This document shows, one piece after another, positions 37,901 through 40,175 of a stretch of DNA of 64,000 nucleotides. The translations under genes were made by a program, and so were the position numbers. Numbering within the stretch: the stretch's first letter is position 1; each line of letters begins with the position of its first letter. This DNA comes from Candidatus Poribacteria bacterium. Its GTDB lineage: Bacteria; Poribacteria; WGA-4E; WGA-3G. The DNA is taken from the NCBI GenBank assembly GCA_964291315.2, contig OZ219753.1, positions 864,001-928,000 on the forward strand, in the 5' to 3' direction. A model generated the notes under the pieces. It worked only from the letters and a program-made list of their open reading frames with translations, was not told the origin of the DNA and did not search any database.

Positions 37901-40175
37901 TGAGCAGAAGTTACTCCACGCAATCTTTGGTGAAAAGGTTAAGGAGGTCAAAGATGCTTCTACTTATGTCCGTCCTGGTGTGGAAGGTGTTGTCATTGAT
38001 GTAAAGGTATTCTCGCGGAAGCTGGATACTGCCCCGCGACGGGGCTGGTCACTAAGTGACTCCGATCCCTCAATTCCTGAGGCGTTGCATTTTGAGTCGA
38101 AACGCAAGCAGATTGAGCAGACTTGGCGCGAGCAGCTCGCTTCTATACGTCATCGGAAAATTGAGGAGATTCGTAAAACACTCATCGGATGTGAGCTCGC
38201 CGCCCCACTTTACGTATTTGCTGGCCCTGATACTGCTACTCCTTTCGCTGATGTCGGGGAGACGTTAACCGCCGAGATTTTAGATACCTATATTTCCGGC
38301 TTCACAGCTGATTCGTACTATACGATAATCGAGGACACAGTCTCCGCGTCTTTCAGAGCTGAAACGCTGTATCACGTAACAGAAGTGCCTGAATCTATCC
38401 CGACTATTGCTGTGCATTATCCTGACTTTTCAGTTGAAGAGCCGATAGCTGCTGAACCTGATGGAAACGATGGGATGATAAAAGATGTTTCCGGATCGTC
38501 ACACTTTGATCCTGAGACCGTTAACCAAGTACAAGCATATCTCAGTCGGATTTGTGCGCCACTCTTAGAAAATGCTGAGCCGATTCTCAACGAGACGATA
38601 GAGCCCTTAAGAATGCAGTCGGATTTTGTCGATGTTGTGCTTCATGGTGCCGATGGTAGCGCGGTTGCGGTCGTTGTGTGTGAGGAATCTCACCGTGAAG
38701 AGGGTTATCATTCTGAGCAGCTTAAAGAAGCTTTTACTGAGGCGGGGGCTCGATTTGGAGTACTGATAACCGAAGAAAACTCAGAACCTGATAATTGGGA
38801 TTTCTATGAATTAGCGGACAATACCGAATTGCAACCGGTAGCACGTTCTGAATTTGAGCAGGCTGTTGTCACACAACTCGAAACGGCTAGCAACGTCCCC
38901 AAGAAGGGACAAATGCTTACCCAAAGTGAATGGGAGGAATTCAGCCAAACGTATCCGGATCTACAAATAGAGATATTTTGGCGCATTACGCAAGTTTTTG
39001 ATGATGAGTTTCCATTGGCGGTTGACCAGACCGTTTCTGATGTCGAATATCAGCAAATCTGCAGAGACTTTCCGGAACGTCCTATTGCAGCCGGTCAGTA
39101 CTTAACGCCTCAGGCGCGCGACTCACTTGCGCTAACTGCTAAAGATCTTAAGACCGAGAATGTTTGGCGTGTCACCACAATTTTCGACCCGAGTTGCACA
39201 CTACCGCTTGAGGAGTATGTTTCTGATACTGAGTACCAAAAGGCTCGCAAGACCTCTAGGTTGTCATTCTCGGACATCCGGGTAACCGATGTGGAAGCGA
39301 TGGAACACATTCAACGGGTTGAAGAGATGGCGCAGGGCAGAATAACCGATTACACGGGAGAAAGAGAGCGCGCCCTCCATCAATTGGAAATGGGAGATGA
39401 ATTGAAACCCGGTGTCATCAAACGTGTGAAGGTCTATGTTGCGAGTAAGCGTCCGATTTCTGTTGGCGATAAGATGGCAGGCCGTTATGGTAACAAAGGA
39501 GTTGTTGCCAAAATCTTGCCTGAGGAAGATATGCCGTATCTTCCGGACGGCACCCCGGTTGAATTGGTGTTGAACCCGTTGGGGGTACCTTCTCGAATGA
39601 ACGTAGGTCAAATATTGGAGATCCATCTTGGGTGGGCGTGTCATGAACTCGGTATCCGAGCGGAATCTCCTGTTTTTGATGGGGCAACAGAGGAGGAAAT
39701 TTTTGAGATGCTCAGCAAAACCGATCTCCCGGAACGCAGTAAGCAGACTGGTAAAAGTATTCTTTATGACGGTAGGACAGGCGAGCCTTTTGCACAAGAG
39801 GTAACAGTCGGACATGTCTATTTCCTGAAGCTCAACCACCTTGTTGCTGATAAGATGCATGCTCGTTCTACAGGTCCCTATTCCCTCGTTACGCAGCAGC
39901 CTTTGGGGGGTAAGGCGCAGCATGGAGGGCAACGTCTTGGTGAGATGGAAGTTTGGGCGCTAGAGGCTTATGGTGCGGCACATACACTCCAAGAGATGCT
40001 CACTATCAAGTCAGATGACACTGAGGGCAGACGCGACATCTATGAGACGATTGTTAAAGGATTTAACCCGCCGCCCCCGGGTACCCCAGAATCGTTCAAA
40101 GTTCTCGTCCGTGAACTCCAAACACTCGGAATCCATGTCTCTCTTGACAAAGACAGTGATGATGGTGAGGATTAA
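34917..40175 (+). CDS. rpoB: DNA-directed RNA polymerase subunit beta with large lineage-specific insertions
   Basis: NGSERVIVSQLHRSPG, DHLGNRRVR, ETPEGP, GDKMAGR.GNKG, NPLGVPSRMN, GGQRLGEMEVWALEAYGA. Confidence 0.98.
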   Translation: MNTKPSRKKNRLSFAKTQVRAPLPDLIETQGLSYNKFLQRDVPPDERKDTGLQTVFKEIFPIRDFSDVNSLEFVSYSLGTPKYTLQECIARGVTYQVSLTARIRLVLREADPDADDPHVVDIRESDVYLGEVPLMTETGSFVVNGSERVIVSQLHRSPGVIFLEKLLQTGRRTTTAQIIPYRGAWVEFEVDAKDHIYVRIDKRKKLPATVLLRALGWESDADILKLYAKTERLVFDGWRVTHVEAPAKQIKPGDLLNSSEFRQAKKDYPGIEAEKCYRVTAVTDKDCSLDVGQEISYGERIRLRRKWKGFETDLLRRVLDLPNSRCEFVVGQILTDSEYEAACTRYGKTAFTVEKASSEDCEGRVCAEDVISQDTGEVLLTANTLLTKTELERLQESAVEALTVLDEVDCQHIRFLRNTLEQDRQADYPEQHSLKDAALLDIFRTLRPGEPASIENASKHLSWLLFDPNRYDLAVVGRYKLNKKFQNTAVYGEPPSETVRTLRPEDIAATLAYFLRVHNGLNPKDDLDHLGNRRVRVIGELLENQFRIGLFQIRRTTRERLSTASDIDKILPSTLVNPKPLMMALREFFGSNQLSQFMQQINPLDELTHKRRISAIGPGGLQRDRATAAVRDVHPTHYGRICPLETPEGPSIGLIVSLACYGRINPYGFIETPYHKVEAGNDAKKKEGGNGSVVYLSADSEDTAYIAAKAIPRAANADVDAVDRLLPVRTGEDVFSLPMESVNYIGVAPQQIVGVSAALVPFLEHEDANRALMGSNHQRQAVPLIRPEAPLVGTGMEEPAARYSGALITATRAGTVTSVSADEILIYTGETLHQDKGENTFSEMGYDIYKLQTFKRSNSGTCIHQRPIVAVGDKVEIGQVIADGTSTENGELALGRNVLCAYMPWGGHNYEDSILISEGLIKRDTFTSVHIEEFEVEARETKVGPEEITRDIPNVGEQQLTQLDEEGIIRIGSVVGTGSILVGKITPKGESEYGPEQKLLHAIFGEKVKEVKDASTYVRPGVEGVVIDVKVFSRKLDTAPRRGWSLSDSDPSIPEALHFESKRKQIEQTWREQLASIRHRKIEEIRKTLIGCELAAPLYVFAGPDTATPFADVGETLTAEILDTYISGFTADSYYTIIEDTVSASFRAETLYHVTEVPESIPTIAVHYPDFSVEEPIAAEPDGNDGMIKDVSGSSHFDPETVNQVQAYLSRICAPLLENAEPILNETIEPLRMQSDFVDVVLHGADGSAVAVVVCEESHREEGYHSEQLKEAFTEAGARFGVLITEENSEPDNWDFYELADNTELQPVARSEFEQAVVTQLETASNVPKKGQMLTQSEWEEFSQTYPDLQIEIFWRITQVFDDEFPLAVDQTVSDVEYQQICRDFPERPIAAGQYLTPQARDSLALTAKDLKTENVWRVTTIFDPSCTLPLEEYVSDTEYQKARKTSRLSFSDIRVTDVEAMEHIQRVEEMAQGRITDYTGERERALHQLEMGDELKPGVIKRVKVYVASKRPISVGDKMAGRYGNKGVVAKILPEEDMPYLPDGTPVELVLNPLGVPSRMNVGQILEIHLGWACHELGIRAESPVFDGATEEEIFEMLSKTDLPERSKQTGKSILYDGRTGEPFAQEVTVGHVYFLKLNHLVADKMHARSTGPYSLVTQQPLGGKAQHGGQRLGEMEVWALEAYGAAHTLQEMLTIKSDDTEGRRDIYETIVKGFNPPPPGTPESFKVLVRELQTLGIHVSLDKDSDDGED

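Follow-up and report, generated by a model that had tools for sequence, protein, structure and literature searches.

A degenerate HSDR_N_2-like domain nested within the beta-i9 region of the RNA polymerase beta subunit in a genus of Candidatus Poribacteria

The rpoB gene of a Candidatus Poribacteria bacterium, located in a window of 64,000 nucleotides (contig OZ219753.1, positions 864,001 to 928,000, the window being the whole stretch of DNA analysed), raises the question of what a domain resembling a restriction nuclease is doing within the beta subunit of the housekeeping RNA polymerase, and whether it could still cut DNA. A sequence-only reading of this DNA had proposed an inactivated nuclease of the HsdR N-terminal type, domesticated within the polymerase and possibly acting as a scaffold or DNA mimic. 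The explanation favoured here, and considered likely, is that of a catalytically dead and strongly acidified descendant of the HSDR_N_2 family, nested in a repeat hairpin of the BBM2 type, with the resulting module sitting at the tip of the flexible beta-i9 stalk. The lineage-specific inserts of bacterial polymerases are usually described as a few repeat folds, and a decayed nuclease of the restriction type would be a different kind of domain.

Location of the domain in the beta subunit

The stretch in question lies within a single, unbroken open reading frame (ORF) of 1752 amino acids (aa) at 34917-40175 (the coordinates of all features are given in Table 1). Its product possesses the Pfam set of RNA polymerase Rpb2 domains 1, 2, 3, 45, 6, and 7, with domain 6 being interrupted by a long stretch which receives no Pfam assignment, and the named relatives of the protein belong to Candidatus Poribacteria. 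The gene is present as a single copy in the 4.4-Mb genome, a search with the C-terminal 257 aa of RpoB returning one place, and this same search found no second, insert-free rpoB. The 120 residues originally quoted for the nested domain are encoded by 38511-38870 (+) in the rpoB frame. Of these limits the start was retained, while the end was moved five residues further, to residue 1323 (position 38885), on the basis of predicted secondary structure.

With regard to its position in RpoB, residues 991-1042 align to residues 893-944 of Escherichia coli beta and residues 1453-1548 to residues 999-1094. Insert beta-i9 corresponds to residues 938-1042 of E. coli beta (Opalka 2010, PMC2939025), and the stretch between the two aligned flanks therefore lies inside beta-i9, where the sequence-only reading had placed it. 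The end of the inserted module coincides with the position aligning to E. coli residue 999. In five sister genera (one genome each, with RpoB frames of 1341-1571 aa), the conserved flanks, searched for with query segments 1-110..135 and 446..463-511, are only ~4-65 aa apart. The ~325 residues in question (1125-1449) have therefore been added at the tip of a beta-i9 that is ordinary in other respects.

The module is composed of repeat units and the nested domain. By BLASTP, its repeat units match both the beta-i4 region of the same RpoB (E-value 3e-8) and the repeats of beta' (E-value 2e-5); the same repeat is thus found in beta and beta', which is the mark of the BBM2/BEAN type. Insert beta-i4 has been described as consisting of BBM2 repeats (Opalka 2010, PMC2939025), and the repeat of beta-beta' modules is named BEAN in a 2024 survey (Alvarez-Carreno 2024, PMC11515920). 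One of the units is split, as had been suspected from the letters, with the piece downstream of the nested domain aligning to the second half of a beta-i4 unit (within the match of E-value 3e-8) and the piece upstream showing the first-half repeat pattern in alignments. The coordinates of the repeat halves were computed from residue numbers, and their ends are accurate only to a few residues. Between the first half and the nested domain lies a linker, which is acidic like the domain itself and varies in length among species through insertions and deletions.

In an AlphaFold2 model of the module, the second repeat half takes the form of a strand (214-216) and a helix (217-226), and the further repeat units (residues 1350-1449) reach a predicted local distance difference test (pLDDT) score of ~90. 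A structural search of this model with VIA says little about the repeat fold, as the matches fill residues 40-207 and barely cover the repeat part. An intein or in-frame homing endonuclease was also considered for the insertion and rejected; no Hint or splicing Pfam family occurs in RpoB or in the module, and the flanks are the two halves of one repeat unit.

Ancestry of the nested domain

Searched on its own, the domain matches two paralogs encoded in its own genome (E-values 2e-8 and 3e-6, 36-38% identity), both of which exceed the Pfam gathering cut-off of HSDR_N_2 (28.7 and 33.9 bits against 25). The first is a protein of 371 aa with an N-terminal oligonucleotide/oligosaccharide-binding (OB) fold and the second is a DprA of 444 aa. 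In each the HSDR_N_2 domain is C-terminal and its motifs are intact, reading D, E-C-K, and Q-L-x-x-Y. The HSDR_N_2 (PF13588) model matches seven places in this genome, so the paralogs for which a search had been suggested do exist, including these two fusions.

A profile of 30 RpoB copies of the domain retrieved 82 proteins at an E-value of ≤ 1e-3 from among 1.84 billion representatives. Six of these, the top three and three additional short rows, resemble fragments of RpoB (five of the six were inspected, P0092 being classed as a fragment by its match pattern). The proteins ranked 4 to 52, less the three additional apparent RpoB fragments, were scanned with Pfam (46 of 82, the 30 weakest not included); HSDR_N_2 was detected at an E-value of ≤ 1e-3 in 44 of these 46 non-RpoB matches and above the cut-off in 40. 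In the opposite direction, a hidden Markov model (HMM) built only from the non-RpoB relatives matches 75 of 75 RpoBs and does not match RpoC. Alignment of the RpoB profile with that of the non-RpoB relatives by hhalign gives a probability of 99.4% (E-value 1e-21, 120 columns). These profile comparisons show the nested domain to be homologous to the HsdR N-terminal nuclease family and bear out the ancestry first suggested for it, though not through a direct Pfam match.

It is this last point that weighs against the assignment. A Pfam scan of the nested domain gave no HSDR_N or HSDR_N_2 match at an E-value of ≤ 10, its only row being one of chance level to DUF562 (E-value 0.17), and the 346-aa module gave no match to either family at an E-value of ≤ 0.1. 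The domain falls below the HSDR_N_2 gathering cut-off, and rpoB is not among the seven places that the model finds in the genome. As there is no direct Pfam match, membership of the family rests on transitive profile evidence. Because it fails both the Pfam threshold and the catalytic motifs, the domain is classed as a degenerate offshoot of HSDR_N_2 rather than a functional member. Neither the RpoB profile (best E-value 0.27) nor that of the relatives (best E-value 0.87) gave anything significant against the sequences of solved structures. The possibility that the protein is itself a type I restriction R subunit (HsdR) was rejected, as it has no helicase motor and Pfam sees RNA polymerase domains alone in its 1752 aa.

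With respect to the relatives themselves, the DprA ending in an intact HSDR_N_2 domain is encoded at L003:1489-2823 (-) (C4 ~1098438), and this fusion recurs in P0086 and P0104. The 371-aa protein, whose OB fold is of the tRNA_anti_2 type, is encoded at L002:1396-2511 (-) (C4 ~1617000). Directly upstream of it is a frame of 161 aa (L002:2707-3192, -) in which the domain copy ends right after the motif II position and which looks truncated. Proteins P0090, P0094, and P0115 are fusions of the nuclease domain to a tubulin-like domain (Tubulin_2, ~1100 aa) or to a staphylococcal-nuclease domain (321 aa), and many other relatives have long coiled coils.

Catalytic residues, charge and predicted fold

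Nucleases of the PD-(D/E)XK superfamily that are of the HsdR type possess a catalytic D followed by (D/E)-x-K, together with a Q-x-x-x-Y motif. In a gap-free alignment with intact relatives, RpoB has V-C-E under E-C-K and Q-L-K-E-A under Q-L-K-S-Y, in agreement with the motif readings (VCE for ExK, QLKEA for QxxxY) made from the sequence. Motifs were counted over 75 RpoBs. The Glu of motif II is kept in none of them, being replaced by V (39), M (24), L (10), or I (2), and the residue next to it can be any of C, H, D, Y, R, P, Q, or S. The Lys of this motif is kept in 25, with E in 45, while motif III has its Gln in 26 and its Tyr in none. Among the non-RpoB copies of the domain, D / ECK / Q..Y can be read in 66 of 84. 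No alternative invariant acidic pair is present in the RpoB alignment. Since the acidic metal ligand is gone in every RpoB copy, canonical catalysis is very unlikely, and the description of the domain as an inactivated nuclease stands on the absence of both the Glu of motif II and the Tyr of motif III from all copies.

Retention of the motif I Asp in 65 of the 75, and of the Lys in one subclade, does tell against a site that has been erased altogether, and because of it a residual metal or ligand site is possible. The same two residues could also be read as belonging to an active nuclease with a non-canonical site. The probability of this is regarded as close to negligible, as the acidic residue of motif II is hydrophobic in every copy next to a position that is itself variable, the Gln and Tyr of motif III are not conserved, and the alignment offers no other invariant acidic pair in their place.

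The nested domain is strongly acidic, as had been noted from the sequence, containing 25 D/E against 6 K/R, with an isoelectric point (pI) of 4.1. Its median net charge is -23 in the RpoB copies (range -30 to -18, n=30), compared to -1 in non-RpoB relatives (-14 to +6, n=22). Such a charge could indicate a DNA mimic or decoy, the acidic surface of which would occupy a DNA-binding protein or repel DNA or RNA from the flap side of the polymerase. The clear shift away from the relatives, found in all 30 copies examined, and the acidity of the adjoining linker are in favour of this role. It is nevertheless thought distinctly unlikely, as the whole module (pI 4.2) and the whole of RpoB (pI 5.0) are also acidic and the acidity may simply suit an exposed appendage. 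Moreover, beta-i9 of E. coli, which has no nuclease domain, is itself described as primarily acidic (Opalka 2010, PMC2939025).

AlphaFold2 models were obtained for the whole module (30 alignment rows, mean pLDDT 80.5, predicted template modelling score (pTM) 0.55) and for the domain only (52 alignment rows, pTM 0.62). Both predict a helix, three strands, a helix, further strands, and a closing helix, with motif position I falling on strand two of the predicted core, motif position II on strand three, and motif position III on the helix that comes next. In the VIA search, which is independent of Foldseek, restriction-type nucleases rank first with the domain model. The matches are BpuSI (Z 7.1, root-mean-square deviation (rmsd) 3.5, 116 residues aligned), 9y1l (Z 7.0, rmsd 3.6, 120 residues), 1wdj (Z 6.6, rmsd 3.7, 118 residues), Hjc (Z 5.9), DrdV (Z 5.8), a DUF820 nuclease (Z 5.7), and the HsdR fragments 3h1t (Z 4.9) and 2w00 (Z 4.1). 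The module model gives a similar match order.

Several results speak against a firm assignment of this fold. The mean pLDDT of the domain-only model is just 69.6, and Foldseek found no match in the PDB at an E-value of ≤ 1e-3 with either model, its top rows being the DNA polymerase gamma accessory subunit (E-values 4e-3 to 7e-3). Flavodoxin-like folds reach a Z of ~5-5.5 with the module model, close to the nucleases, and every Z from VIA is <8, a range in which a common arrangement alone can explain the matches. The likeness to the DNA polymerase gamma accessory subunit was itself set aside as a generic alpha/beta resemblance, as its Z falls to 4.0 in the VIA search. A restriction-endonuclease fold is thus weakly favoured by the fold searches of the predicted models; the evidence agrees with that from sequence and would not stand alone. 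The sequence-only reading had looked to profile and fold comparison for a decision, and this came out in part: the profile match to HSDR_N_2 relatives was obtained (99.4%), a Foldseek match at ≤ 1e-3 was not, and VIA placed nucleases first with Z at most 7.1.

Distribution, related modules and possible role

A search of 176 genomes of the phylum found the RpoB-borne copy (frames of at least 1252 aa, E-value ≤ 2.5e-16) only in the window's own genus. It is present in long frames in 60 of the 64 other genomes of the genus and split over two contig ends in one more, the domain being kept in 61 of 61 with an assembled rpoB region. In the three remaining genomes, which have a completeness of 83-84%, not even the conserved flanks of the module are present, and so this part of rpoB was simply not assembled. 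No genome of the genus was seen to have an rpoB without the domain. The module is absent from the five sister genera, and other genera gave weak matches only (E-values 1e-9 to 1e-4), in frames of 170-950 aa which are paralogs. The comparison of orthologous RpoBs for which the sequence-only reading had called thus finds the domain in all genomes of its own genus with this region assembled and not in the five sister genera sampled.

The linker has the highest ratio of nonsynonymous to synonymous substitution (dN/dS; Nei-Gojobori), at 0.45, followed by the domain (0.26), the stretch before (0.19), and the repeats (0.17). These ratios come from the pairs with a dS of 0.05 to 1.5 (225 of 435); with dS near 1 the values are rough, which counts against leaning on them too closely. 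Judged by these ratios, the domain is clearly not drifting freely and is under purifying selection. Alignments also show an E-P-D stretch and other near-invariant residues of surface type that are specific to the RpoB copies. In view of its retention in all 61 assembled genomes and its dN/dS of ~0.26, the term domesticated used for the domain at the outset appears justified. This is then a decayed nuclease kept under selection across a genus of uncultured sponge symbionts.

Similar combinations of repeats and nuclease domains are found outside of RpoB, in the proteins P0082 (837 aa) and P0087 (938 aa). Both are membrane-anchored and contain, in order, short repeat pieces, an intact HSDR_N_2 domain, and a degenerate one that leads into the same second-half repeat and further units; a membrane helix, a coiled coil, and tetratricopeptide (TPR) repeats come after these. 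P0082 (L043) is encoded in one genome of the same genus (G151), and its best other matches in the phylum are RpoB modules (E-values 1e-33 to 1e-17, 26-39% identity). From their presence in these two proteins, the polymerase-type repeats of this genus can be said to reach beyond the polymerase.

A second case is that of a sister species in the same genus (G167), the RpoB of which is 2352 aa in length. The loop that comes after its Rpb2 domain 3 region, and that has 13 residues in the window's RpoB, holds a second insert, 602 aa long (L049:4941-6746, -). This insert consists of units, a domain with intact D / ECK / Q..Y motifs, a degenerate domain, and units again. The intact domain scores 27.2 bits with HSDR_N_2 (cut-off 25). 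Such a second RpoB insert was seen only in this one of the 176 genomes searched. Should its nuclease motifs be active, the G167 polymerase would have a nuclease of its own built in.

In a quick maximum-likelihood tree (101 domain copies, 116 columns), the 16 sampled beta-i9 copies form one group (support 99), and the degenerate copies from P0082, from P0087, and from the G167 insert are joined to it (Shimodaira-Hasegawa-like approximate likelihood-ratio test (SH-aLRT) support 98). The intact first copies fall in another part of the tree, near the OB-fold paralog of the window's own genome. On this tree, the dead copy within a repeat is likely to have arisen only once, which is not secure, because long branches meet at the joint. 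The copies can be arranged as a natural series, from intact in free proteins, through intact and dead in tandem, to a lone dead copy in RpoB. Among the proteins of this genus the module seems to be mobile as a cassette, with the like repeats of rpoB, of rpoC, and of a membrane protein family as a possible source of homology for recombination, and this would be an example of an essential enzyme gaining a foreign domain as a cassette.

Such mobility could also mean that the domain is a tolerated remnant, a repeat module with a nuclease having landed in-frame in a permissive loop and the nuclease having decayed there with no role of its own. Consistent with this are the G167 insert of the same make-up, with intact nuclease motifs, in another RpoB loop, the same module in membrane proteins, and the grouping of the dead copies of all three settings in the tree (SH-aLRT 98), while large insertions, such as one between residues 998 and 999, are tolerated by beta-i9 of E. 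coli (Opalka 2010, PMC2939025). A mere remnant is nonetheless judged improbable. The in-frame retention in 61 of 61 assembled genomes, a dN/dS of 0.26 that is well under neutral, and the near-invariant surface-type residues peculiar to the RpoB copies, the E-P-D stretch among them, all argue against it, and the tree grouping on which it draws is one that joins long branches.

For the preferred explanation of a dead and acidified head, beta-i9 of E. coli is the closest guide to function. It is flexibly attached and sweeps a hemisphere of ~65 angstrom radius, its surface is acidic, and it lies away from the nucleic acids in elongation and open complexes; its docking of unknown factors was the authors' proposal (Opalka 2010, PMC2939025). 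Based on these properties and the end of the module at the position of residue 999, the domain is read as a non-catalytic, non-DNA-binding head on a stalk. It would not cut DNA and probably would not bind it either, and would be kept as a tethered surface module, the E. coli counterpart of its stalk being flexible and remote from nucleic acids. Its most likely role would be as a contact surface for another protein or as an electrostatic or steric spacer. We infer the role of a non-catalytic tethered module by analogy. On this reading, the domain would be a candidate for protein contacts in a region of the polymerase that has no known role even in E. coli.

PD-(D/E)XK nucleases commonly act as dimers. 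A more specific contact can thus be envisaged, with the dead RpoB copy serving as a docking site where free proteins (DprA, OB-fold, and tubulin-like fusions) would pair through their intact HSDR_N_2 domains and so be brought to the transcribing polymerase. Candidate partners would be provided by the seven HSDR_N_2 matches outside RpoB in the genome, fused to varied partners, and P0082, P0087, and the second insert in the G167 RpoB each combine an intact with a dead copy in tandem. Positions W-x-F-Y and F-E near the C-terminal end are common to the RpoB copies and the relatives; these shared residues are mostly hydrophobic, though, and may merely hold the fold together. The interaction is a putative one, and the net charge of -23 is strongly unlike that of the near-neutral relatives. 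Docking is considered an unlikely account. Were this landing-pad reading true, DNA processing or defence would be coupled to the transcribing polymerase, and the genus would have built nuclease recruitment or activity into its core transcription enzyme.

In relation to known systems, the nested domain is like HSDR_N_2 (PF13588) and the HsdR N-terminal nuclease in its profile-level homology, the order of its secondary structure, and the placement of its motifs on the same elements. It differs in being without a helicase motor, in having lost the Glu and Tyr, in being far more acidic, and in being embedded in a polymerase. A parallel is the endonuclease-like domain of spliceosomal Prp8, which has a fold of the PD-(D/E)XK type, has lost catalysis, and is kept in an essential nucleic-acid machine. 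The machine and lineage are different from those of the RpoB domain, and the two are not known to be related in sequence.

With beta-i9 of E. coli (also SI2 or 'dispensable region II'), the Poribacteria insert shares the insertion site and an acidic, exposed character. Known beta-i9 inserts, with lengths of 105-143 aa across 307 sequences, are formed by a hook and two long helices (Opalka 2010, PMC2939025), whereas that of the Poribacteria has ~325 extra residues of repeats and nuclease-like domain at its tip. Like the BBM2/BEAN inserts of beta and beta', the module has units resembling the beta-i4 and beta' units of the same organism. Recursive insertion of one insert domain into another has been described for beta' (Alvarez-Carreno 2024, PMC11515920), but there the guest is another repeat unit, unlike the nuclease-like domain nested here. 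The same survey puts lineage-specific beta inserts under one domain type, and the words 'nuclease', 'restriction', and 'Poribacteria' do not occur in it (PMC11515920). A 2026 preprint on spirochete polymerase mentions nested inserts of another kind than those of the Poribacteria. Literature searches returned no description of a nuclease-fold domain in beta, with the catalogue of Iyer and Aravind (2012), which may bear on novelty, and supplementary files lying outside their coverage.

Table 1. Features of the rpoB-rpoC region discussed in the text (window coordinates)
Feature	Position	Strand	Residues and remarks	Basis
rpoB, RNA polymerase beta subunit	34917..40175	+	1752 aa, GTG start	ORF list, translation, Pfam
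BBM2-like repeat units at beta-i4 position	35589..36221	+	225-435	BLASTP to beta-i9 module units, E-value 3e-8
Genus-specific module at beta-i9 tip (repeat units and nested nuclease-like domain)	38289..39263	+	~1125-1449	Sister-genera flanks
First half of split repeat (long strand and short strand)	38352..38420	+	1146-1168	Model strands 27-37, 44-48; alignments
Acidic linker, predicted disordered	38421..38510	+	1169-1198	pLDDT <50 at module residues 54-74
Degenerate HSDR_N_2-like (PD-(D/E)XK-type) domain	38511..38885	+	1199-1323	Profiles, predicted secondary structure, fold matches
Motif I Asp (D1239)	38631..38633	+	Kept in 65/75, otherwise N, G, H, A	Predicted strand 119-124 of module model
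Motif II position, V-C-E vs E-C-K	38676..38684	+		Predicted strand 130-137 of module model
Motif III position, Q-L-K-E-A vs Q-L-K-S-Y	38718..38732	+		Predicted helix 145-157 of module model
Second half of split repeat	38901..38963	+	1329-1349	Aligns to beta-i4 unit second half
Further repeat units of module	38964..39263	+	1350-1449	BLASTP to beta-i4 units and beta' repeats
rpoC, beta' subunit	40262..46174	+	1970 aa, many BBM2-like repeats	Translation, BLASTP

Two further RpoBs of the genus, P0064 (2103 aa) and P0074 (1981 aa), exceed the others in length by 230-350 aa. Their extra length lies before Rpb2 domain 3, which is at residues 951-1019 in P0064 and at 596-664 in the window's RpoB, and two HMMs found no further nuclease-like copies in either protein. 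The domain HMMs likewise gave no match to a nuclease-like domain in the RpoC encoded next to rpoB. The repeat run of this beta' extends over roughly residues 1060-1600, far more than in E. coli.

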